Positions 1,264 to 51,438 of a stretch of 64,000 nucleotides of DNA are shown in pieces. The stretch is from a virus. The notes under the pieces were generated by a model. The model worked only from the letters and a program-made list of their open reading frames with translations, was not told the origin of the DNA and made no database searches. The stretch covers positions 1 to 64,000 of the IMG/VR virus record IMGVR_UViG_3300003890_000025; one strand, given 5' to 3'. Made by a program: the position numbers and the translations under genes. Each line of letters opens with the position of its first letter. Position 1 is the stretch's first letter.

Positions 1264-3681
1264 TTATTCCTCAGACACTTCATTCCCCAAATCTCCAGAT
1301 AACTCATCAATAGTATCTTGTGCTTGTTTACGTAAAATTGGGTCTTGAGTTATTAGGAATAAGGCAGCGTTTCGTCCTATTCTGTCTTTACCTAAAGATT
1401 GCGTTAATAAATTACTTAGACCCTTTCTACCTTTAGCCAGAGCAAAATTAGCCATATCTTCAATTACTACTGGGTCAGCTACGCCTATTTTTCCTATTAC
1501 TTGAGCCGTATTCTTAACTACGTCTTTTGATTGCTCTGCTAAAGACTTAACAAACTTACCTGCTAATCCACCTGACTGAATAGCTGCTCTTTTAATGAGA
1601 GAAGGAGTTACACCGTACCTAGATAGAGCCACATCTTCAGTAGCTTGTCCTGTTAGTTCTGCGGCCTCAGCCGCCTCTCTAATTTTTGGTAAAAGTTTTC
1701 TAGTTTTTTCTGGACTAGCCCTAGACATTGCTCCTAATAATTCCGGAAATTTTCTACGAGTAGGGTCAACAATTCTAGCCTCAGCTGATATTATTCCTTC
1801 TTCTATTTCAGGAAATCTCCTAGCTCCCATTCCTGGTCCTGGAGCTGGAGTAGCACTTTCTAAATATTTACTAATTAACTTTTTAGTTTCTGCTAAATCC
1901 TTAGACCCAGATATTACTTCTTCTTGTAAGGACTTGGCAGCCGTCGGGTCTATATCAGATAATGTTTTAAATAAGCTATCTAGCTCAGCTTTTTCAGCTA
2001 CAGACAATTGACCAGACGATTTTTCTAGCTGTCTTAATAGTTTAGAAGTAGGCTCTAATCCTCTTCTACCTTCTTCCAAAGCCAATCCCTCTGCTTCTAT
2101 AGCCTTAGAATACTTATCCTTAGCCTGTTTAAATAATTTAAGCTCTTCACTACCTTCTGGTAATTGTTCTTCTATTCTATCTACTATTTGCCTATAGGCT
2201 TTTCTAGTTATACCAGTTAGTTCTTTTTCTGGTTGTGTTCTACCGTATGCCTCTCTAGCTAGGTACCTTTTTGCTTCTATGGCCTCTTCTGGAGATATAG
2301 CCTCCTTAATAGTAGGAGTAAATTTTATTTGTCCTTTTTCTGTAATCTCTCTACCTAACTCTAATCCTTCGTCAGAGTATTTACGAACTATATCAACTCC
2401 TGCTGGCTTTTTTTCTCCTACACGTAATAATCGTTCTAGCTCTTCTTTAGTACCCTCTTTTCTACCTATTTTTACTTTAAATCCAGCTGGTAGTAATTCT
2501 GTAGCTTCTTCCCCAGAGTCTGCTAATCTTTTAAGTTTTTCAGTAGTAGCTATGTTAATAGGCTTTTGTGCTGGAATTTCTTTAAGTTTTGTTAGTTCCT
2601 CTATAATATCCTCAGCCTTACGCTTAGCGTCACCGCCAAACCTAGCTTTTTTAATTTGATCTATTGTATCATCTATAATATCTTTAACTACTATAGGATT
2701 ACCTTCATTAACTAGTTTTTCTACAGTAGACCCTATCTGCTGCCCGTACTTACTTTTAGTAGATTTAATAAGATCTGTTATATCTTCTCCTACCTTTAGG
2801 ACTCTCTCTTGTTGCTGAGGTAGTAGTTTTTTAGATAAACCTTCTTCTAATAAGTCAGCTATTTCCTTTTCTGTTGATTTAATTTGAGATAAAGTTTCTG
2901 TTAAGTCTTCTACTCCAGGTATTAATCCAGTTTTACGTGCTCTTTTAAAAGCTTTAGTAGGTAGTTCTCCGATTACTGGTATTTTAGTTGCTAATGGTAA
3001 AGCATGGGCTAAGGTAGTTAGACCACCTCCAACTAAAGCACCCATTTCGGCTCCACTCTCTGCACCCTCTAACTTATCTCCTTCAGCCATACCAGCCCCA
3101 GCTACTCCTCCTATTAAGGCTGATTCAGACGTAGCAGCGCCTATTCTAGCTAATTTACCAGCGCCAGGGGCTACTCTAGATAATATAGAAGTAATAGGAG
3201 ATACAGCTACTCTACCAGGACCTGTTAATAATGGCGCAACAGTACCTATTCCAGTTCCTACTCCGTATGCAAGAGGGTGTTCTTCTTGTGCTCTGGCATA
3301 CGCCTCACGGACTTCTTGTAGTGCCTGTTCATAGGGAACTCCACCCTCAACTAAAGCCGCTATTTCATCAGCAAATCCTAAAGTAGAAGCCTGTAGGGCT
3401 CCTCTACTTACAGCCTCTAATGATCCAGAAATTTGTTTTGACATCTCTTTCCCTGGGTCAAATGTCGGTCGAAGATCTAATTCTATATCTCTTTTGATTG
3501 GTACAGTTCCAACTCCTTGTACCTCTATTGGTTCAGAGGGTAGTTCGGTTAAATTCTCTGGTACAAATTCAAGATCAGAATCTGCTTCTACTTTAGAAGG
3601 TAATTGGCCGCCTTCTATACTTAGATCTCCTTTTATAGGAGTAAAGCCTAGATCTTCTATTTGATTATCTAGTTTTGACAT
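1264..3681 (-). CDS. internal virion/ejection protein
   Basis: 805 aa helical protein; RGALQASTLGFADEI and Gly/Ala hydrophobic segments; position after the tail genes as in podoviruses. Confidence 0.6.
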   Translation of the reverse strand: MSKLDNQIEDLGFTPIKGDLSIEGGQLPSKVEADSDLEFVPENLTELPSEPIEVQGVGTVPIKRDIELDLRPTFDPGKEMSKQISGSLEAVSRGALQASTLGFADEIAALVEGGVPYEQALQEVREAYARAQEEHPLAYGVGTGIGTVAPLLTGPGRVAVSPITSILSRVAPGAGKLARIGAATSESALIGGVAGAGMAEGDKLEGAESGAEMGALVGGGLTTLAHALPLATKIPVIGELPTKAFKRARKTGLIPGVEDLTETLSQIKSTEKEIADLLEEGLSKKLLPQQQERVLKVGEDITDLIKSTKSKYGQQIGSTVEKLVNEGNPIVVKDIIDDTIDQIKKARFGGDAKRKAEDIIEELTKLKEIPAQKPINIATTEKLKRLADSGEEATELLPAGFKVKIGRKEGTKEELERLLRVGEKKPAGVDIVRKYSDEGLELGREITEKGQIKFTPTIKEAISPEEAIEAKRYLAREAYGRTQPEKELTGITRKAYRQIVDRIEEQLPEGSEELKLFKQAKDKYSKAIEAEGLALEEGRRGLEPTSKLLRQLEKSSGQLSVAEKAELDSLFKTLSDIDPTAAKSLQEEVISGSKDLAETKKLISKYLESATPAPGPGMGARRFPEIEEGIISAEARIVDPTRRKFPELLGAMSRASPEKTRKLLPKIREAAEAAELTGQATEDVALSRYGVTPSLIKRAAIQSGGLAGKFVKSLAEQSKDVVKNTAQVIGKIGVADPVVIEDMANFALAKGRKGLSNLLTQSLGKDRIGRNAALFLITQDPILRKQAQDTIDELSGDLGNEVSEE

Positions 3682-8300: not shown

Positions 8301-11300
8301 TATCTATTAATCCTATGGGATAAAGACTCTAATATTAAACTTAAAGCCTCTAGTTTCCAGTTTTCTCTAGCTACTTTATGTCTAAACTCACAATTTAATA
8401 AGCTGCACCGTTGTTTACCAGTAGGTATGTAGGTTCTTATGCCTCTCTGTGTTTGTTCTCCGCCCCAAGGTAAACTACCCCAAGGAAAAGAACCCCATAA
8501 ACCTAAACCAGGGCCAATTAAAGGTATCTCTTCTACTCCTGGCTGTAAATCTGAACTAAATGCTAATTTAGGAGTGGTAATCCTAGAGTCATTAAACCTA
8601 AGTATAGCTTCCCTAAAATGCTTTAATACTCCAGGACTACCTGCTGTCTCTGGTAGCCATTTTACTTGAATATCTATAGCTTTATATAACTTAATACTAC
8701 CTAACTCAAAATCATATATAGTCTCCACTGTCACTTCAGAAGCTAATAAATTTATAGCTGTTATTTTAGCTTCTACTGTAATAGTATAACTACCGTAATT
8801 ATTAGTATGTGTCTGATTCTGGACTAGTACGTCTCCTATACTAGCATTTGATATTGAATTTAACCTTACTGTCTTTTCTGAGGATAAGTATTGAATAACA
8901 GTTAAGTCGAATTCTCTGTCAGAGAAATCTGAACGCTTAAAGTCTTTACGCTCTATTTCAATATTATTAATATCTGCGGCTCCTAAATATAGCCTATCAT
9001 TACCTGTAGATACCACTCCAGCAGTTTTTGATATATTCCAATTAGTCCAACTGTTAGTTGTGGTATTATAACAATAAGCCTTTGGAGCCGATATATCATT
9101 TGGACTTTCTGGTAACCATAATAAATATTTTCTATCAGTGTCATAAAACACAGCAAAAGAAGTACTTTGAATATTGGGAAACTTAGTTATATTTAATATA
9201 TCGTCCTTTAATGGTTCTGATATAACACTTACTCCAGTATCTGATATAGTAGTCACTCCTTGATTGGTAAAACAAAATACTTGATTATTACCTACTACAG
9301 CCGTATCTGGAGCAACAATAGCTGTTGAATTATCAAAAGGTACGAGAGATAATGATTGAGGCGATTCTCCTGATATCCTAAACACTCCATCTGTCTTTAA
9401 TACAAATAAACTATCTCTAAGAGGTACTATTCTTTGTATCTCTTTCTCTCCGCTCCCTACATTAAAAAAGTTAATTTCTGGTACTGCTTCATGTAAGCCT
9501 AGTTTTGAGTAATAAACTCTATTTTTAACTGATTCATTATCTGACGTTTCTACTTCAGATTCCTTTTTCCAAGCTCCTTCAGTACCAGCTACTGTGACGC
9601 TAACTGGTACTGTAAAAGTGTTAGTACCAGTTACTGTTACTACTCTAGTACCATCTATTGTAGGAGTACTATTAGATCCTACTATAAATATCTTATCTCC
9701 AGTAACTAGTCCATGTGGATTAGTAGTTGTAACAGTAGTAGTTCCGCTTACGGATATGCTAGTTATTGGATTATTTTGTGGAGCTATATTAGGGTTAAAA
9801 TTAGTAGACCCCACTGTAAAGTCATTACACAGCACCTTAAAGGCTGGGTCATTAAGATCCCTAGACTCTAACACTATTTTACCAGGAGCATCTGTCGTCC
9901 CAGATATATATCTAGCATAAATATTAGTATTGTTAGCGTGTCTATTTATAACTCTAACCATGCTCCTAGCTGTATCATCTACGTTTTGTGATGGTAATCC
10001 TGTAGTAAATACTTGTATTTGTGCTAGAGATATATTCTCAGTACTAGAGAATGTGTAAGTAATATTACCTATTCTAATCTTCTTACCCGTTAAGTTATCA
10101 ATACCTACGATAGTTAAAAATAACCTTTGAACGGTTTTGGTATTAGCATAAAAAGCCATATTCTTAAATACAGCTATATCCTTTGCAAAAGGTGGAGGGT
10201 CGTTAGACTGAGCTATACCCTCCTGTCTTGGACTAGTATATAAGTCTTCTCCTTTAAAAGAATCAGGAGTACTATCTACTACTGTTATAAGCCCTGCCTT
10301 AAGTTCAGCAGTCGTAGGGTTCTTCTCAATAACTAGTTTCATATCATCACCAGGATCTACGTCAACATTGACTGATGCATTAGTTCTATATACTTGATAA
10401 AAATAGTTAGTAGTAATGCCTTGAGGTACGGTAAACGTTAATTCTACGTCTTTACCCTTTTCAGATTCTTCAAAATCCCCTGCTGTTAATGCAGATGCTG
10501 ATATCTTACCAACAGGCTCACTTATTAAGGTACTTATAATATCATCAAAAAAGTTCTGTTGATTTAAATAATCGCTAGGATTATTATTAATTGGATTAGG
10601 ATACTTTCTAGCTAAACCACTAGTCCAAGTACCAGTAGATCCAGCACTAGTAACTGCTACTGGTATTGTAAACGTATCTACTCCAGTCCTAGTTACTACA
10701 TATTCGCCATTAATACTAGGAGTACTGTTGGATCCAGTTATAACCACTATATCTCCAGTTGTAAGGCTATGACCTACGGAAGTTATAACCGTAGGACTTG
10801 CAACTGTATTATTGGTTATATTACCACTACGACCGTATCTAGCTGAACCTTCACTTACCCAAGACCCCGCAGTACCCGCGGTCGTAACTGCTACTGGTAC
10901 GCTAAAAGTATTCGCAGTTAGTCTGGTTATTACGTGCTTACCATTTATAGGAGGAGTACTATTAGATCCAGTTATACGTATAGTGTCACCTGTAGTTAAT
11001 CCGTGACCAGTAGACGTTACTACAGTAGGATTAGCAGCAGTATTAGCTGTTATAGTGCCACTGCCTCCGTTAGCAGTAAAAGTGTAATCTAAGTCTAACT
11101 CTATCTTGGAAGCTATTTCTTTTAGTTTAGAATTAATCTGTAATGCTGTAGCTGATAGAGGTAGTGCTGATATACTAGATACATAGTTAGTATCACTTAG
11201 ATCGTCTGTTGAGTCTGCTCCTGCTGCAGTATCTAGTTTAGATCTTAGACTATTAATTTGAGGTATTAAAAGTTCTTGAATTGATAGTGATATAACAGCC

Positions 11301-21982: not shown

Positions 21983-22123
21983 TTAATCCCATTCCTGCTC
22001 TTTTATAAGCTTTATATAATCTTTCATAGAGTAAATGTTCCCAAGCATAATAACACACCAATTACCATTAAACATTATAGCATAACCTATAGGATATAGG
22101 CCAATACCATCAGTATATTCCAT
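21983..22123 (-). CDS. 46-aa hypothetical protein (not in ORF track)
   Basis: TAATG coupling to the endolysin stop; MEYTDGIGLYPIG...EQEWD. Confidence 0.45.
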   Translation of the reverse strand: MEYTDGIGLYPIGYAIMFNGNWCVIMLGNIYSMKDYIKLIKEQEWD

Positions 22124-33466: not shown

Positions 33467-34933
33467 TTACTTATTATTCTTTATAAATAAGCTCTTTATT
33501 GCATCAGCCGTTGAATTTATAACATCGGCACCCTTGTATAAAACAGACCCTGGTATTCTTCCCCAATCGTGTGGATAAGGATTTCTATGATACTGTATGT
33601 TTCTAATTAAATATACTAAACAATCTACTAAATCAAAGTGAGACCCCCTCTCTGTTCTTTCAAAAGTTTTTCTATTTTTAGTCCAAGTAGCCGTATGTAG
33701 CTGATATATAAGCTCTTTACATCTAGGATTAATTATTAATTGCTCAGAGTGTACTTTTAATCTTAACTCATTTATAGCAGTTGCTTTTTCGTCTTTCTTA
33801 GTAGGTATAAATAAAACTCCATGTAACCTATTTAAATCATTAAGAGTAATTAAATCATCATCTGATATTCTAATATAAACAGGCTGAACCTCTAGTGTTT
33901 TTGGATTCACCCACAATTGACTCTCTTTATCTTTTATTTTATTAGCTAATATCTCAGTTGTCATTTCAGTACCATTCAATAATAACTCATCCTCAACTAC
34001 TACTTTATTATTTTTAAAATCGTAGTAAGCGAATAACACACCAGTTTTATCTACAAACCCAAGATCCATTGACGTATAAGCGTCGTAACGCGGAGGTCGA
34101 GGCCACTCTTTAACAATTACAGACTCTTTTTCTTGTGTAAATTCTGGTACAACTGCCCTCTCTTGATTTACAATAAATTTACACATAAACTCACGCTGCC
34201 AAGTATCTGATAACTCTCCTCCAACCTCAGCCTTTAATTCTTCTACGGCCTCTAGTGTTAACCTATTACACATTGGAGGAGGATCGTTTTTTATACTATT
34301 TAAAACGTCGTATATATTCTTAAATAAGTATGAATTATTAGACTTAGCCTCAGCTACTAGGGTAGTATAATAATGCTCTGGTTCAACTGGAGGGGTAGAT
34401 GATATTATTATCTTACCACGAGTAGTTAATGTTTGTGGTAATAGTATATTTTTAATAAGATTTTCTAAATCATCCATAAAACCAGCCTCATCTACTATAC
34501 ATAAATGACTGGTTTGTCCCCTAAGTCTTTCTGCATTACCTTCATCAGTTCCTTCTATTTGAATAGACGATCCATTCTTAAAGGTATAAGATCTATCATG
34601 CCTAATATAACTAGGCCTTAAGTCTGAAGGACAGTCCTTTAATATATCAAACATGGTAGGTATTATAAACCTCTGCGCCATGAACGCTGTAGGACAGGCG
34701 TATCTTACTATAGTACCTGGATCTGATAAGGCTGCTTCTATAGCTATTATTAATAAAGAATATGATTTACCCATTCTTCTTGGGGCAGTTATAACTAGTT
34801 TACGTTGTTTTGATTTCTTATATAGATTATATACGTCTTTTTGAGCAGAGTCTAATTTCCAATGTAATACTCCTCGTCTCCAGAGCTTTTCTATTGCTAA
34901 ATCTTTAGTAGTAACTGCTGTTTTCTTTGTCAT
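33467..34933 (-). CDS. terL: terminase large subunit
   Basis: Walker A APRRMGKS, Walker B CIVDEAG, motif III SSTP, nuclease MDLGFVD and HFDLVD. Confidence 0.93.
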   Translation of the reverse strand: MTKKTAVTTKDLAIEKLWRRGVLHWKLDSAQKDVYNLYKKSKQRKLVITAPRRMGKSYSLLIIAIEAALSDPGTIVRYACPTAFMAQRFIIPTMFDILKDCPSDLRPSYIRHDRSYTFKNGSSIQIEGTDEGNAERLRGQTSHLCIVDEAGFMDDLENLIKNILLPQTLTTRGKIIISSTPPVEPEHYYTTLVAEAKSNNSYLFKNIYDVLNSIKNDPPPMCNRLTLEAVEELKAEVGGELSDTWQREFMCKFIVNQERAVVPEFTQEKESVIVKEWPRPPRYDAYTSMDLGFVDKTGVLFAYYDFKNNKVVVEDELLLNGTEMTTEILANKIKDKESQLWVNPKTLEVQPVYIRISDDDLITLNDLNRLHGVLFIPTKKDEKATAINELRLKVHSEQLIINPRCKELIYQLHTATWTKNRKTFERTERGSHFDLVDCLVYLIRNIQYHRNPYPHDWGRIPGSVLYKGADVINSTADAIKSLFIKNNK

Positions 34934-35295: not shown

Positions 35296-35547
35296 TTATT
35301 TTCTATATAGGCTCATAGTAGCTAACTTAGCTTCCATATTAGATATTCTAGTTTCGAGCTCTTCGGAAATACTCTTAGCTTTCCTGTGGTTTAAAAACTT
35401 TAATAGACCTTCTAGTACTATTATGGAGATACAGAGTAAAACTCCTCCAATAGGAAAATCTCCTCTAATAATAAAACTAGATACCATTGATACAAATGAA
35501 ATTAGAAACCAAGGCAATAAACCTAATTTATTAAACAAGTTATGCAT
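35296..35547 (-). CDS. 2-TM membrane protein
   Basis: Two hydrophobic helices and a coiled-coil tail. Confidence 0.55.
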   Translation of the reverse strand: MHNLFNKLGLLPWFLISFVSMVSSFIIRGDFPIGGVLLCISIIVLEGLLKFLNHRKAKSISEELETRISNMEAKLATMSLYRK

Positions 35548-37393: not shown

Positions 37394-37446
37394 ATATTAC
37401 TACGTTAATATAATACTTGTCAATAGGTTTATTAACGTGCTATAAT
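37394..37446. promoter_or_regulatory. divergent sigma70 promoters
   Basis: Plus strand TTGTCA-18-TATAAT (37417-37446); minus strand TTGACA-18-TAATAT from 37423. Confidence 0.6.
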
Positions 37447-38412: not shown

Positions 38413-39372
38413 CTACTCTGGGAGAGTACCTTCTCCTTTGAGTCTACCCTTGAGTCTTTCTAATAGTAAACGTCTCCTATTTCTAGCAGATTCTTCTTCC
38501 ATCTCTTTAATAGTTTTAGCTATATTTTCTTGTTCTCTCCTAAACTTATCACCTACTATAAATCCTTCATCACCGTGTTCTCTTAGGATCCTATTAGCCT
38601 CTTCTAGGTTACCTTCTTTTAGACTATCCTTATACCTCTGCAATAAGTCTTTTCTAGCCTCTTTAGCGTCTAGTATATCCACTGCCCTAGCTGCTTCTGG
38701 TTCTTTTACAGCTAATTCCATAGCCTTATGTCTAAGTCCAGTATCATCGCTAGTCATTAACCTATTTATCTCATTATCCTCTAGCTCATTTAATAAATCG
38801 TCAGTCCTACGATCCCTTAGTCTAGCACTAGCTAATCTTCTCCTAAACTCTTCAGGACTCTTAGAAGCTAGTCTTATAGTCTCTTCTTCAGCTAGCGGTA
38901 ATTCTCCACCTAACCAATCGTATTCAGGCAAATCAGACTCTGCCTTGCTAAGTTTAGTAGTCTTAGGTTTACTAGTAGATACTTCTTTAGCTAAGTCTCT
39001 CTCTACTTCTGATTTTAAAGCCTTTAACTCTCTGCCAGCGTATTTTGGTGCTATAGCTCCCTGTTCTGCTACTTCACCGAAACCACCTTTAGGTAAAGGT
39101 CTAGCTCTCCTCATAGACCTTAAAACTTCTGCTAGCTTACCACCCTTTTCTAATATTTTACTAGTTATAACTGGAGCAGCTCCTAAACTAGCTCCACCTA
39201 CTAATAAGCCACTTAAGTCATCAGGAGATGCGCCTATTACCTCACCTTCTTTATAAGGACTATAGCTTAGTAAGTTTACTAAGCCTTTTAGTATACCTGC
39301 TTCACTAGGTTCTATAGCTTGTTCTTTAGCTAGACGTTTATGTAATTCTTGTATACTTTCTTTGCGTGACAT
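38413..39372 (-). CDS. charged helical late protein (possible virion cargo)
   Basis: 319 aa with composition like the ejection proteins. Confidence 0.6.
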   Translation of the reverse strand: MSRKESIQELHKRLAKEQAIEPSEAGILKGLVNLLSYSPYKEGEVIGASPDDLSGLLVGGASLGAAPVITSKILEKGGKLAEVLRSMRRARPLPKGGFGEVAEQGAIAPKYAGRELKALKSEVERDLAKEVSTSKPKTTKLSKAESDLPEYDWLGGELPLAEEETIRLASKSPEEFRRRLASARLRDRRTDDLLNELEDNEINRLMTSDDTGLRHKAMELAVKEPEAARAVDILDAKEARKDLLQRYKDSLKEGNLEEANRILREHGDEGFIVGDKFRREQENIAKTIKEMEEESARNRRRLLLERLKGRLKGEGTLPE

Positions 39373-39375
39373 TTA

Positions 39376-39576
39376 TTAGTTCTTCTTGAAGAAGTCTCTT
39401 AGCTTTTTAAAAGCTGGTTCATTAAAAGGCTTAGACATTTCTTCTAGTGTCTGTCTACCTCTACCCCAACCAGCTTTAGCTAACTTTTCTCTATATTCTC
39501 TCTTACGTCTTTCTTTTTCTTCTTCGTCCAACTCTAAGTCTTTATCTTCTAAGTCTTTGTAATCACCTCTTGGCAT
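39376..39576 (-). CDS. small charged protein
   Basis: Start MPRG at 39576 with AGAGGG RBS. Confidence 0.55.
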   Translation of the reverse strand: MPRGDYKDLEDKDLELDEEEKERRKREYREKLAKAGWGRGRQTLEEMSKPFNEPAFKKLRDFFKKN

Positions 39577-39580
39577 ATTA

Positions 39581-39811
39581 TTAACCCTCTGTGTTAACGG
39601 ACAGCCCGTTAGAGGCTGTCCGATCTTCACTATATTTACCTTGTTTTATATCTTCTAAAGCTTTAAGGTAAGTTTCATTAGCTTCTTCTTCAGTTCTATG
39701 GTAACCGAAATGTTTAGGCTTACCATTAACTTTAATAACTACTTTCCATTTCTTAATTCTACGAGTTTTATCGTACGATACGCCTTTGTATTTAGATGAT
39801 TTAGGTAACAT
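39581..39811 (-). CDS. stand-alone AP2-domain protein
   Basis: SKYKGVSY.....KW.V.I..NGK.KHFGY..TEEEA...Y. Confidence 0.75.
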   Translation of the reverse strand: MLPKSSKYKGVSYDKTRRIKKWKVVIKVNGKPKHFGYHRTEEEANETYLKALEDIKQGKYSEDRTASNGLSVNTEG

Positions 39812-39824
39812 TATTAACCCTCTA

Positions 39825-40316
39825 TTGAGTATTTGTTTAACGTACTCAACCCAAACTAAGGAAGTCTATATAGGCTCATTCTATATAGTGTTGATACTGA
39901 CTATGTGGTAAATTTTGGGTAGGCTTCGCCTATATAGACCTATTATGTTTATAATAGAAAGGCCTTGTTAGGTTGACCGCCTAGTAACATTCTGCACCGT
40001 ACTCGGTTACCCCCTGACACTGACGCTAGTGGGTTAGGCTATGTCAGTAGAGAGGTGCTTTCGGGGCTAGGCTGTTACTGCCCATAGAAAGCCTCTTTCT
40101 CGCAGAGCTGTATGTTGTCTTTAGCTGGGTTATAAGGGTCTTAGCCTCTTTAGTCCAGCTCCATTTCAGCTTATTAAGCATCCCTGTAGACCTCACTCCG
40201 CTTGTCTCAGACTATACCCCCAGAGTCATACCTTATTTCAGGTGTTCCACTACCATAATTAGTAGTGTTCTGGGTTAAGACACGTTTTGTACTCTATACG
40301 TCACCGTATAGGTCGC
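39825..40316 (-). ncRNA. large structured ncRNA candidate (~490 nt), family unknown
   Basis: No ORF, GC-rich, many nested stems; extended -10 TGCTATAAT immediately upstream on the minus strand. Confidence 0.6.
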
Positions 40317-40322
40317 ATATTT

Positions 40323-40355
40323 ATTATAGCATATTAAATCCAAATATGCTATAAT
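40323..40355. promoter_or_regulatory. 13-bp perfect inverted repeat forming back-to-back extended -10 (TGnTATAAT) promoters
   Basis: ATTATAGCATATT-7 nt-AATATGCTATAAT. Confidence 0.7.
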
Positions 40356-40364
40356 TATTTTATT

Positions 40365-40643
40365 ATGTCTAAAGGTATGAAAACATTATTCTTTTTAAAC
40401 ATTTTCTATGAATTTATAAATAAATATGATTCTAAATTACCTTTATACGCCACTTATACAGAACTTGAATGTTTAAGTAATTCAGAAGAACTTAAGTGGG
40501 ATAACGGTAAGCCTGCAATAAAATTTCTAAGTAAATATAAACCAATTGATCGTAGAGCAGTTATAATAGCAGGACACTATTTCAAAAGTAATGAAAAATT
40601 ACAAACAATTAAAAACAGACTAGCAAGAAAGTCAATTATATGA
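40365..40643 (+). CDS. hypothetical protein
   Basis: Follows the promoter; ATGA-coupled to the exonuclease. Confidence 0.55.
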   Translation: MSKGMKTLFFLNIFYEFINKYDSKLPLYATYTELECLSNSEELKWDNGKPAIKFLSKYKPIDRRAVIIAGHYFKSNEKLQTIKNRLARKSII

Positions 40644-41212
40644 AACTCATAGCTATAGACCTAGAGCTTAATAACCCTAAAACTAATCAATCTATAATCC
40701 AAATAGGTGCAGTGGTAGGAGATTTAAATTTAAAAACTATTATTGAGGAATATAAAGCCAATATTCGACTACCTGAAGGTGAACTACTACAGGACTATAT
40801 TAGTAATTTAACTAATATCAAGCCCCAAGAAGTAGAAGGTAACGGATTAAGTCTAAAAGAGGCTGTAAAAGACCTCCATAACCTAGTCACTAAATACGAC
40901 TGTTTAAAATCGCCTATAACGTGGGGTGGAGGTGACTTGCCACTCTTACGTCAAAAGTACCTAGAATCTCTCAATGGTGAGCCTTTAAACACGTTTAATT
41001 GGCCTTTTGGTTGGAGGGAGCTGGACGTAAAAACAGTCTACCAGACTAGGTGTTTAGCTTTAGGCCTAAAACCACAGGGGTCTTTAGCTAAAAGTATGAC
41101 TAAACTAGGCCTGAGGTTTCAGGGGACTAAGCATAACGCATTAGATGACGCTAAGAATACTTTATTATTATATTATAAGTTATTGGAGGATTATAAAATT
41201 AGATTATGTTAA
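40640..41212 (+). CDS. DEDDh 3'-5' exonuclease (ERI-1/KapD-like)
   Basis: IDLE, WG..D, HNALDDA. Confidence 0.88.
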   Translation: MKLIAIDLELNNPKTNQSIIQIGAVVGDLNLKTIIEEYKANIRLPEGELLQDYISNLTNIKPQEVEGNGLSLKEAVKDLHNLVTKYDCLKSPITWGGGDLPLLRQKYLESLNGEPLNTFNWPFGWRELDVKTVYQTRCLALGLKPQGSLAKSMTKLGLRFQGTKHNALDDAKNTLLLYYKLLEDYKIRLC

Positions 41213-41607
41213 ACTTTAAAATTCAATCTTTTATAAATATAGTTTTAATTTTTATTCTTATTAATCTTAATCAACACTGTAATAACACTGATAAAACACC
41301 GATAAAGCCACCAACGACAGAACCCAGTCCTACTCCAGAGCCTAAGCCTGAAGAAAATTTAGTAGCTAAAGGTAAAGCTATTTACCGTAGAAACTGTATT
41401 AGTTGTCATAATATTAACCCTAAGTTAGTTGGTTCTGTAGGGCCTGATTTATACGGGTCTAGCTTAGATTTATTAAGGTCTAAAGTTATATATGGAACTT
41501 ACCCAAAAGGCTATAAACCTAAACGTAATACTAAAATAATGCCTAAGTTCCCTAGTCTTGAACCTAATATAGAGGCTATAAAAGAGTTTCTAAATTCTGA
41601 TTTATAG
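41206..41607 (+). CDS. membrane-anchored class I c-type cytochrome
   Basis: GKAIY...CISCH haem motif, GPDL, distal Met in IMPKF; N-terminal anchor and Pro linker. Confidence 0.85.
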   Translation: MLNFKIQSFINIVLIFILINLNQHCNNTDKTPIKPPTTEPSPTPEPKPEENLVAKGKAIYRRNCISCHNINPKLVGSVGPDLYGSSLDLLRSKVIYGTYPKGYKPKRNTKIMPKFPSLEPNIEAIKEFLNSDL

Positions 41608-46079: not shown

Positions 46080-47372
46080 ATGAATAATAATAATAATAAT
46101 GATTTAGATAGAATAGTGGTTGGTGATCGAGTATATTTAGAAAACAAAATCGGTCTAGAAGAACGACTCATAGAACATTTAACGCGAAGTGATTATTTAA
46201 TTGTAACTGATATCAGAAATAACCTTTGCGATATAGTTACCCCGAACGGGACAAAAATAAACATTTTATTTTTACACAGATTTAAAAAAATACCTTCACT
46301 TAAAATTAATGAAGATACAAAAATTGTGTTAGAAAACAATAGGTTAAAATTAATTACTAATAAAGAACACCTTTCAAGAAAAATTAACAAAAAACAGCAA
46401 CTATTAATTAATGATTCGTTAAAGTATGGAAATAATTATGCTTTATCATTTTTTGGTCATAAATTAATAAATCAAACATGGAAGATACTTATAGATAAAT
46501 ACAAAGATAAATCCGTTCTAAATAATATACCTCTAGCTACAGATGTAGAGGTACCTCCTATCTGCTACAGACCAACTAACGTCTTTTTATCTTTACAAAA
46601 GACGCTATACAATCCGCTCAGTGAAAAAAGACCGATTGGAAAGGATTTTGGACGTTACTTTGGAGTAGAAATCGAATGTTTCATACCTAATAAAAACTTC
46701 GACCAAATAGCTGAATTGTTAAGATCAAATAAAATAAAGAACGTCTCTCTTGCCAGAGATGGTTCTTTAAGCATTGACAAAGATTATTGGACTCCTGTCG
46801 AATTCAGAGTTTTAACAAAAATAAATGATTTTAATAATTTAGAAAAGTTATTGGATTTATTAAACTCTTGGGGTGCAGAGGTCAATAGTACTTGCGGGCT
46901 ACACGTGCACCTAGATATGAGGCACCTAAAAAGTAAAGTCTCGGTTAAGAAGAGAGCTGAAAAATTGTTAAAATTTTTACCAATGCTCAAGGCGATGGTA
47001 CCTAAAAGTCGTATTGAAAACGAATTCTGTAAACTTGATATAAGCAGTTTTGGAAATAGGTACGCAGCTATAAACCTGGAATCTTTTAAAAAACATAAAA
47101 CCATTGAAGTACGACTTCACAGTGGGACTATTGATAAAACCAAAATCATTAACTGGTGCAAGTTATTGTATATTATAATTAATTCAAAAATTGATAAATT
47201 TTATGATTTTGATTATAACATCACGAAAGCTTGTAAAATGTTAAAATTAAGTCAAGAATTGGAATTTTATGTTCGTTCTAGAATCCGAAAATTCAAGCCA
47301 ATTCTTTTAGAAGTAGACCAGTTAAAAAATCAACCAAATCAGCCAATAGTACAACCTCACAATTCATTATAA
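46080..47372 (+). CDS. putative amidoligase (COOH-NH2 ligase family)
   Basis: FGVEIE, DGSL, CGLHVH, RY.AIN, TIEVRLHSGT. Confidence 0.85.
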   Translation: MNNNNNNDLDRIVVGDRVYLENKIGLEERLIEHLTRSDYLIVTDIRNNLCDIVTPNGTKINILFLHRFKKIPSLKINEDTKIVLENNRLKLITNKEHLSRKINKKQQLLINDSLKYGNNYALSFFGHKLINQTWKILIDKYKDKSVLNNIPLATDVEVPPICYRPTNVFLSLQKTLYNPLSEKRPIGKDFGRYFGVEIECFIPNKNFDQIAELLRSNKIKNVSLARDGSLSIDKDYWTPVEFRVLTKINDFNNLEKLLDLLNSWGAEVNSTCGLHVHLDMRHLKSKVSVKKRAEKLLKFLPMLKAMVPKSRIENEFCKLDISSFGNRYAAINLESFKKHKTIEVRLHSGTIDKTKIINWCKLLYIIINSKIDKFYDFDYNITKACKMLKLSQELEFYVRSRIRKFKPILLEVDQLKNQPNQPIVQPHNSL

Positions 47373-50190: not shown

Positions 50191-50607
50191 ACTGAATGTA
50201 TCACTATCAAAATCTGGTAACAATGAGCCAGTAATACATTTAAAACTTAAAAACGAGGTTATAGATGGTATTACGCACAGATACTATACCATAACAGACG
50301 ACGGATTAGAATTAAGATTAAGACTGTCCACATTAAAGGGTATAGTAAAGTACGTTAAAGGTATCCTCACAAAGATGGGCAAGAACGAATGAAAGAGTTT
50401 CAGAATAGACAAATAGTCATCGTATTAGACGTACCTACAGGGAGCGGTAAGGTGGACATGTGGGCAGTCTATATAGGCCCTGCCTCAGGCACTAATAAAG
50501 GTAAGTTAAAAGTATGGTTATTAGGAGAAACAGAGTTCTACGCAGAACCCGATAAGGTACTAAGTAAAGAAGAACATAGGAAACTAGGAGGTAGGAGTGT
50601 TAAATAA
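50177..50607 (+). CDS. two small hypothetical ORFs (50177-50392, 50389-50607)
   Basis: ATGA coupling. Confidence 0.5.
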
Positions 50608-50657: not shown

Positions 50658-50686
50658 TTGTAAAGGAGTTATAAGTGTGTTATAAT
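50658..50686 (+). promoter_or_regulatory. sigma70 promoter
   Basis: TTGTAA-17-TATAAT with TG extension. Confidence 0.7.
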
Positions 50687-50692
50687 AAAAAC

Positions 50693-51005
50693 GTAGGTTT
50701 AATAGCCAAACTGTTAGCCTTAAAAACAGTGGCGCAGAACGAAACACTGCACGATGCGGCTAGGCTTAGTAAAAAGCGTAACGTGAAGGAGCCTCGTACC
50801 CCACCACGTAGGGATATGAACAGCCAATTAGACGCTCGTAAACATAGAGATGACGTTCTAGTCTGTGGTCGAATAGAGTTGCTTAGCTCCTTGCTTGGCT
50901 CAAAGCGCGTATTCGAATTTAAGGTAGGTCACTTGTTAGAATTAGTCTCGCTTAATAAGTCCAAGGTTCAATATGGTGCTAGTACGCGCCAAGGGTGGGG
51001 TGTAT
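50693..51005 (+). ncRNA. structured ncRNA or leader RNA candidate (~310 nt)
   Basis: GC-rich, own promoter, several hairpins and long-range pairings. Confidence 0.55.
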
Positions 51006-51006
51006 C

Positions 51007-51438
51007 ATGAGTTTTGATAAATGTGGTAAATCAATGTATAGGGTTAAGCTACGATCTGGTGAAGTATATTTAGTCGGTAGAGTTAAGGGTAGTAAAACGG
51101 TTGATGTCAGGGGGTTAGATCACATGTATTATGACTGGGATCTATATGATATAAAGACAAGTTTAGGTATTGATGAGCATAGTGATTTTAAGAAACCTAA
51201 TCCACCTTTAGCTAACAGTAATAGTGAACTTAATAAAGAAGACAACATAGAGAATAGGTTAAGTGAGATAAAGTCAAGTATTGAGAGATTTGAGAGGTGG
51301 CAGAAAAACCCTGAACTAGATATAAGAAGTGAAAAAGAATTATCAAGTTTTAATGAAGATAAAACCTACATTGTACTTTTTATATTTTTTGTATTATTAT
51401 TTATTGCTTGGCTTAGTTTAGTCATGTTATACTTATAA
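51007..51438 (+). CDS. hypothetical protein with C-terminal TM
   Basis: ATG at 51007. Confidence 0.55.
   Translation: MSFDKCGKSMYRVKLRSGEVYLVGRVKGSKTVDVRGLDHMYYDWDLYDIKTSLGIDEHSDFKKPNPPLANSNSELNKEDNIENRLSEIKSSIERFERWQKNPELDIRSEKELSSFNEDKTYIVLFIFFVLLFIAWLSLVMLYL

Follow-up and report, generated by a model that had tools for sequence, protein, structure and literature searches.

Long structured 5' leaders precede several phage operons, including the 6S leader of the lambda pR'-tR' region, the HK022 put RNA and the leader-derived RNAs P4 CI and P1 c4. In these systems a strong constitutive-type promoter is followed by a folded, untranslated RNA ahead of a late or regulatory operon, and an upstream segment of the RNA is complementary to a site just before the first ribosome-binding site. 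Both features are also predicted for the ORF-free gap described here. The known leaders are 70–200 nt long and carry defined terminators or antiterminator sites, whereas the leader predicted here measures about 500 nt and lacks a predicted terminator. The gap differs further in having no sequence or Rfam similarity to them, and an antiterminator gene was not identified.

Other large RNAs provide a second comparison. ROOL (RF03087), GOLLD (RF01998) and HEARO/omega RNA are found in phages, span several hundred nucleotides, lack ORFs and exceed their surroundings in GC content; the gap shares these properties. Unlike them, it matches none of the 4227 Rfam models, has no adjoining tRNAs and has no IscB/TnpB-type gene nearby. 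These classes are defined by wide conservation and covariation, whereas our searches found no homologues of the gap. If the gap is instead regarded as a replication origin, the systems to compare are ColE1 RNA II-type primer transcripts and T4 oriF-type R-loop origins. They share with it a promoter-driven, folded non-coding transcript of ~500 nt with G runs (predicted in our case) and a strand-switch point beside an AT-rich segment and replication genes, a likeness that is purely positional. Structured RNAs are overrepresented in long intergenic regions of high GC content, and a GC-IGR/DIMPL candidate becomes a motif only once homologues show covariation (PMC6429828, PMC8723152). The gap is a GC-outlier intergenic region like these candidates, but it has no such homologues.

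The window that we analyzed covers positions 1 to 64,000 of an IMG/VR virus record that is 79,148 bp long; the genome has a GC content of 34%. The phage has no close cultured relative: the best match of its TerL among GenBank phages is 27% identical. The gap (39812-40364, 553 nt) separates two diverging gene blocks. On the minus strand, leftward and in order, lie a 76-aa AP2-like protein, an 84-aa ORF, a 319-aa protein, a protease, TerL (33467-34933) and the portal. On the plus strand, rightward, lie a 92-aa ORF (starting at 40365), a DEDDh exonuclease and a cytochrome-c-like protein. The locus coincides with a switch in transcription direction and with the cumulative GC skew minimum, and replication-type genes (the exonuclease and an AAA ATPase) adjoin it. 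Our preferred reading, to which we assign a probability of roughly 0.4, is that the gap encodes a minus-strand leader or non-coding RNA of ~460-505 nt ahead of the AP2-like and structural genes, closed by a 17-bp helix between its 5' and 3' regions.

The first gene downstream of the putative leader encodes the AP2-like DNA-binding protein (39581-39811, minus strand; phrog_99, E 2.6e-13; Pfam AP2, E 0.002, below the cut-off). AP2 is a domain that accompanies HNH endonucleases. A decayed HNH-AP2 homing endonuclease was considered as the source of the gap and rejected: the phrog_99 match covers only profile positions 211-293 at 39527-39802 and stops short of the gap, and the HNH_3 profile has no match anywhere in the genome even at E<=10. 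The record contains another AP2-type domain close to its beginning, within an ORF of 207 aa (G000:C1:301-540, plus strand; phrog_99, E 6e-10). The 319-aa protein (38413-39372, minus strand) is highly charged and coiled-coil-like; it has no Pfam or PHROG match, and among 5.8 billion proteins it matches only itself. The cytochrome-c domain lies in a phage-encoded protein of 133 aa (41206-41607, plus strand; Pfam Cytochrom_C, 32 bits, above the cut-off).

The gap is non-coding and compositionally atypical. The first-pass annotation had described it as ORF-free, and each of the six frames indeed contains 8-18 stops and lacks the native codon-usage signal. With log-odds trained on 49 long ORFs of the genome, sliding-window codon scores in the gap range from -0.12 to -1.89 over all frames, while genes score 0.43 ± 0.19. 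The longest open stretch is 75 codons, within a stop-rich frame. The sole ORF preceded by a Shine-Dalgarno-like sequence (GGAGTGAGG-N9-ATG) is a basic 45-aa frame on the minus strand (40044-40181, ATG at 40181). Its codon log-odds of -0.15, against 0.43 ± 0.19 for genes, and its GC3 of 0.56, against 0.24, indicate that it is probably not a gene. An unannotated protein-coding gene is thus ruled out by the stops, the codon scores and the poor quality of this ORF. The GC richness also noted earlier holds relative to non-coding DNA. The 366-nt core (39955-40320; plus strand A78 C91 G81 T116) has a GC content of 47% and the gap in full 41%. Among the ten gaps of at least 150 nt it ranks first in GC content and second in length; the other nine range from 25 to 35% GC. 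Elsewhere in the genome, 17 stretches, mostly coding, have a GC content of at least 45%.

A minus-strand promoter had been proposed just upstream of the structured stretch, and TGCTATAAT matches exactly at 40331..40323. This extended -10 promoter points leftward into the gap, with a predicted start at ~40317-40318. A mirror-image extended -10 promoter (40347-40355, plus strand) serves the rightward operon of the 92-aa ORF, the exonuclease and the cytochrome-c-like protein, and the pair makes up a perfect inverted repeat of 13 nt. The 64 kb contain four copies of TGCTATAAT, each a perfect extended -10, at 22074-22082 (minus), 37438-37446 (plus), 40323-40331 (minus) and 40347-40355 (plus). All four copies are intergenic and each is directed at the next gene; they are likely the phage's host-type promoters. 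Because of this consistent placement, we infer with good reason a leftward transcript from ~40317, which would run for about 505 nt before the first minus-strand start codon. The rightward mRNA would be nearly leaderless, since its ATG lies just 10 nt past the plus-strand -10. A scan of 39300-40800 predicts no intrinsic terminator for either strand, and an sRNA ending at a Rho-independent terminator was rejected on the same grounds.

Every one of the stems and repeats that the first-pass annotation listed is present at the coordinates given there. Nearest to the predicted start lies the hairpin 40294-40311, which on the minus strand is predicted as a 5'-proximal element (40291-40313) of 9 bp with one bulge and a pair probability of 0.93. 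Read on the minus strand, the loop is GUGA, a GNRA-type sequence; on the plus strand it is UCAC. The hairpin is followed by a three-way junction (40219-40274, minus strand), in which the P1 stem CCCAGA/UCUGGG (in the DNA, CCCAGA at 40219 and TCTGGG at 40269) surrounds the hairpins 40248-40267 and 40230-40243. The same fold of this junction is predicted on both strands. Further along, AGCTG at 40106 can pair with CAGCT at 40167, and AGCTGG at 40123 with CCAGCT at 40155; the latter is predicted to form a hairpin with an inner stem (40123-40160) at pair probabilities of 0.94-0.99. A separate hairpin domain (40049-40100) is built from GCTTTC at 40057 and GAAAGC at 40087 with an inner GGGC/GCCC stem, and reaches 13 pairs on the plus strand via two G-U pairs. 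At the left end are the 12-bp inverted repeat 39864-39875/39928-39939, the hairpin TAGGC-TTC-GCCTA at 39920-39932 and the stem 39825-39849.

The element that would tie these domains together is a long-range helix on the minus strand. Its 5' strand (40269-40286) is predicted to pair with 39839-39855, closing ~430 nt, and the 3' strand ends 28 nt before the start codon of the AP2-like gene. Hand alignment gives 17 pairs, including 3-4 G-U pairs, and one bulged C, and the helix has a probability of 0.96 in the minus-strand ensemble. The duplex energy of -30.8 kcal/mol is matched by 0.6% of shuffles and by 1.9% of genome pairs of the same geometry, with p values that are post hoc. The helix is specific to the minus strand, as the non-Watson-Crick positions are all G-U-compatible there and not on the plus strand. 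The local stem 39825-39849 competes with its 3' strand.

Several features point to the minus strand as the transcribed one. In addition to the GUGA loop and the long-range helix, the bases predicted to be unpaired are 47-49% A if the minus strand is folded, compared with 39-41% U for the plus strand, and in AT skew the gap agrees with minus-strand genes and runs counter to plus-strand ones. The assignment is not secure, because several helices lengthen on the plus strand through G-U pairs.

The thermodynamic signal is modest. The annotation had held that folding should exceed that of dinucleotide shuffles; this is marginally so for the whole stretch and more so for 40020-40319, while most of the length is ordinary for this genome. 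As a background, 300-nt windows from all parts of the genome, 62 in number, were folded on both strands, giving a mean z of -0.27 (sd 1.30, 5th percentile -2.29, minimum -3.31). The whole stretch (39812-40320) scores -2.56 on the minus strand and -2.46 on the plus strand, and the 366-nt core -1.40 and -2.03. For the promoter-proximal 300 nt (40020-40319) the values are -2.9 and -3.1, and this is the only segment that is an outlier against the genome background without the aid of the promoter palindrome, whose inclusion (40100-40399) yields -3.7 and -3.6. Smaller segments localize the signal to the 116 nt containing the 5' hairpin and the three-way junction (40205-40320; -2.45 minus, -2.93 plus) and to 40015-40105 (-2.10 minus, -2.17 plus). 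In the domain 40205-40320 the ensemble is well defined, and the centroid retains both main elements of the MFE structure (on the plus strand the two are identical). The interval 40100-40215 folds no better than shuffles (-0.43/-0.64), two windows within 39900-40259 give -0.33 and +0.65 on the minus strand and -1.08 and -0.75 on the plus strand, and 39955-40020 is not significant on either strand. The data describe some well-formed hairpin domains rather than an ornate fold of 490 nt, for which the case is weak.

The left end of the gap has a different character. The 'perfect 12-bp inverted repeat' of the first-pass annotation exists, but it is less likely to be an RNA stem than a set of protein-binding sites, as its arms are two inverted copies of the dispersed 12-mer GTCTATATAGGC. 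This 12-mer, which has a CTATATAG core, occurs exactly at 39864-39875 (plus), 39928-39939 (minus) and 50467-50478 (plus), and with one mismatch at 35301-35312 (plus). With three exact copies against an estimated chance expectation of ~0.01 per 64 kb, GTCTATATAGGC appears to be a recognition sequence. Three CTATATAG palindromes are found within 39864-39939, at 39866, 39881 and 39930, the outer two inside the inverted GTCTATATAGGC copies. These boxes and the left 140 nt as a whole are probably DNA-level protein-binding sites rather than an RNA helix, and the adjacent AP2-like protein is the obvious candidate for binding them.

The stem 39825-39849 overlaps a AAACAAAT-N6-TA motif. The more general form AAACAAMT-N5/6-TA occurs 12 times in the genome (for example at 39838, 33465, 22520 and 41608), where 7.2 ± 2.6 occurrences are expected. 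Most copies lie 14-36 nt ahead of a start codon on the same strand and overlap ribosome-binding regions, so a promoter role is doubtful and a signal for translation initiation or processing is the better fit.

No known RNA family accounts for the gap. A comparison with Rfam had been proposed as a check on novelty, and none of the 4227 models of Rfam 15 matches the 64-kb window at the gathering threshold. These models cover group I and II introns, RNase P, tmRNA, 6S, GOLLD, ROOL, HEARO, OLE, raiA, hammerhead, twister and riboswitches. When 39600-40500 is searched at E<=10, a 26-position plant-virus pseudoknot model matches 39840-39876 (15.6 bits, E 8.9), on the local stem and the first box at the left edge of the gap, and weak matches fall on the AT-rich promoter palindrome (rli60, 23.6 bits compared with 60). 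The GC-rich core has no match even at this level. The annotation's view that tmRNA, RNase P and intron hallmarks are absent agrees with the empty results of ARAGORN, which detects no tRNA or tmRNA in the window, and of Rfam. Other candidates were rejected individually: a hammerhead or other small ribozyme (no Rfam match at the locus), a group I or II intron (no exons, no Rfam signal), a CsrB/RsmZ-type sponge (GGA occurs 5 times on the minus strand, where 7.0 are expected, and not at all on the plus strand) and a MITE (the ends match at 13/18 positions as DNA, there is no clean duplication, and the element is single-copy in the genome, with none in plasmids, phages or GTDB).

Homologues were sought at several levels, among records that are not near-identical to the window. 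By blastn, no DNA homologue is found in INPHARED phages or PLSDB plasmids, and the phage's own genome holds no paralogue of the stretch, the best internal complementarity being a 15-mer (E 0.03). Neighboring genes did not lead to related loci either: a search of IMG/VR with the 319-aa protein returns no relative, the exonuclease yields only matches of 28% identity in IMG/VR and none in JGI metagenomes, and TerL finds none in GTDB. Across 30 TerL/portal-related loci nhmmer reports nothing significant (best E 6.5), a DNA search of whole related viral contigs gives just a 17-nt chance match (E 0.14), and a covariance model of the 5' domain has no match in related contigs. Pattern scans of IMG/VR return 8 matches to the paired TACCCCCWGA, all attributable to chance, none to the paired 12-mer and one to the loop/junction descriptor of the three-way junction, a chance match in coding sequence. 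A 20-mer scan of GTDB is empty.

Related phages (TerL 34-47%, portal 39-57% identity) thus lack both the sequence and its 5' domain. The nearest of them (L004, L005, L006 and L030; portal 49-57%, TerL 39-47%) carry another gene set at the locus. In L030, a 663-nt ORF-free gap (8480-9142) heads the terminase operon; it has no sequence similarity to ours and no significant folding. The 45.7-kb contig G003 has an equivalent gap without ORFs in front of its terminase operon and ends inside it (L010:5398-5731). These two cases hint that long ORF-free DNA at this position marks a genome end or a repeat in the lineage.

Some further observations come from the same comparisons. L020, from a freshwater metagenome (TerL 42%), contains a type II hammerhead at 2196-2262 (minus strand, 40.6 bits, above the gathering threshold) between two small ORFs, and a second hammerhead-like sequence at ~2560-2635 (minus strand) upstream of the first small ORF. 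Ahead of both lies a GC-rich leader of 350 nt that contains no ORF (2640-3000). This leader was considered as a counterpart of the gap and rejected, as its operon ends in an amidoligase homologous to 46080-47372 of the window and hence belongs to a different arm. Another relative (L032:113-4406, TerL 41%) has six tRNA genes upstream of the terminase, where the present window has none. Within the window, the region 50693-51005 folds no better than shuffles (z +1.25 plus, -0.67 minus) and lies within a GTG-initiated ORF of 111 aa (50675-51010), whose codon score of 0.085 is ambiguous and whose GC3 is 0.42; the region is not similar to the gap at 39812-40364.

The ordinary folding over most of the length could also mean that the gap has no function at the RNA level, being either a control or replication region that acts as DNA or a decayed foreign insert. 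We regard this as somewhat unlikely but as the leading alternative. In its DNA-level form the gap would bring together promoters in divergent orientation and operator boxes, and possibly an origin primed by transcription. At such an origin the RNA from the promoter, with G runs in two UCWGGGGGUA repeats on the minus strand, would form an R-loop beside the 20%-GC segment 40325-40474. In favor of this view, the locus sits at the strand switch and GC skew minimum next to replication-type genes. The dispersed 12-mer, the three palindromic boxes and the 13-nt two-promoter palindrome are features of a DNA type, the repeat TACCCCCWGA is present at 40008 and 40215, and relatives (L030 and G003) likewise have long ORF-free gaps heading the terminase operon. 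On the other hand, a GC content of 47% is atypical of origins and promoter regions in AT-rich genomes, which are normally rich in AT themselves, iterons and tandem repeats were not found, and short direct repeats stay within the estimated chance level. As for the decayed insert, a pseudogene of the neighboring endonuclease type is excluded, and no donor-like DNA was found in phages, plasmids or GTDB.

Two alternatives keep an RNA function and change the molecule. One is a free-standing, trans-acting structured RNA of a new class, ~430-460 nt long and on the minus strand, freed from the leftward transcript made early, perhaps through a cut within the 17-bp helix, and acting on a host or phage target. 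It draws on the same GC content, helix, promoter and A-rich unpaired bases as the leader and on the lack of an Rfam match. Double-strand-specific RNases cut flanking helices and thereby release stable RNAs, and the closing helix resembles such substrates. We consider this RNA improbable, given the lack of conservation, the weak overall folding and the missing terminator; CsrA-type GGA enrichment is not seen, and complementarity to other phage regions does not go beyond the 15-mer. The other is a plus-strand RNA of ~360 nt, running from TATAAT at 39950-39955 to the hairpin 40288-40317 followed by UAUUUAUUAU. Its helices are longer through G-U pairs (20, 13 and 10 pairs), the z of the core is slightly better than on the minus strand (-2.03 vs -1.40), and a terminal hairpin with a U-rich tail has the layout of a terminator. 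However, the U-rich run is displaced and the hairpin does not qualify as a terminator, the putative promoter lacks a -35 and has its TG off by one base, and the promoter scan is empty on the plus strand. Its unpaired positions would be U-rich and G-poor, its loop UCAC rather than GNRA, and its AT skew opposite to that of plus-strand genes. This plus-strand RNA is slightly less probable again.

Returning to the minus-strand leader, we propose the following model. Transcription would start at ~40317 from the extended -10 promoter and produce an untranslated RNA of ~460-505 nt toward the AP2-like gene. The promoter-proximal ~300 nt would fold into the 5' GNRA-capped hairpin, the three-way junction and two further hairpins. 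The 17-bp helix (40286-40269/39855-39839), placed just upstream of the AP2 ribosome-binding site, would close the leader as a single domain and compete with the local hairpin 39849-39825 beside the Shine-Dalgarno sequence. It may therefore govern processing, stability or translation and so determine if early read-through yields an AP2/late mRNA that can be translated, and an excised or terminated piece of ~450 nt may persist as RNA. The distal 140 nt with the three CTATATAG boxes would act as binding sites at the DNA level, possibly for the adjacent AP2-like protein. Counting against this model are the z of the core, which is not clearly below shuffles, the ordinary middle and left parts, the lack of a predicted terminator and of a homologue, and the 17 other places that reach the same GC level.

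A new class of large structured RNA like ROOL or GOLLD, as the first-pass annotation suggested, is not supported by positive evidence. In its strongest form, the locus would encode a lineage-specific minus-strand RNA of ~450 nt, transcribed early from a host-type promoter and released by cleavage in the 17-bp helix, with a function of its own; we think this quite improbable. Such a function might be to hijack a host factor or to gate late expression, and the RNA would then constitute a new class of large phage non-coding RNA. With no conservation, modest folding and part of the apparent structure explained by a DNA-level repeat, the locus is a reasonable candidate and not a discovery. If the RNA is real, it would add an orphan to the few large non-coding RNAs of phages, of use mainly to those mapping phage regulatory RNA, and it would place a long early leader before the structural genes in a phage lineage without cultured relatives.
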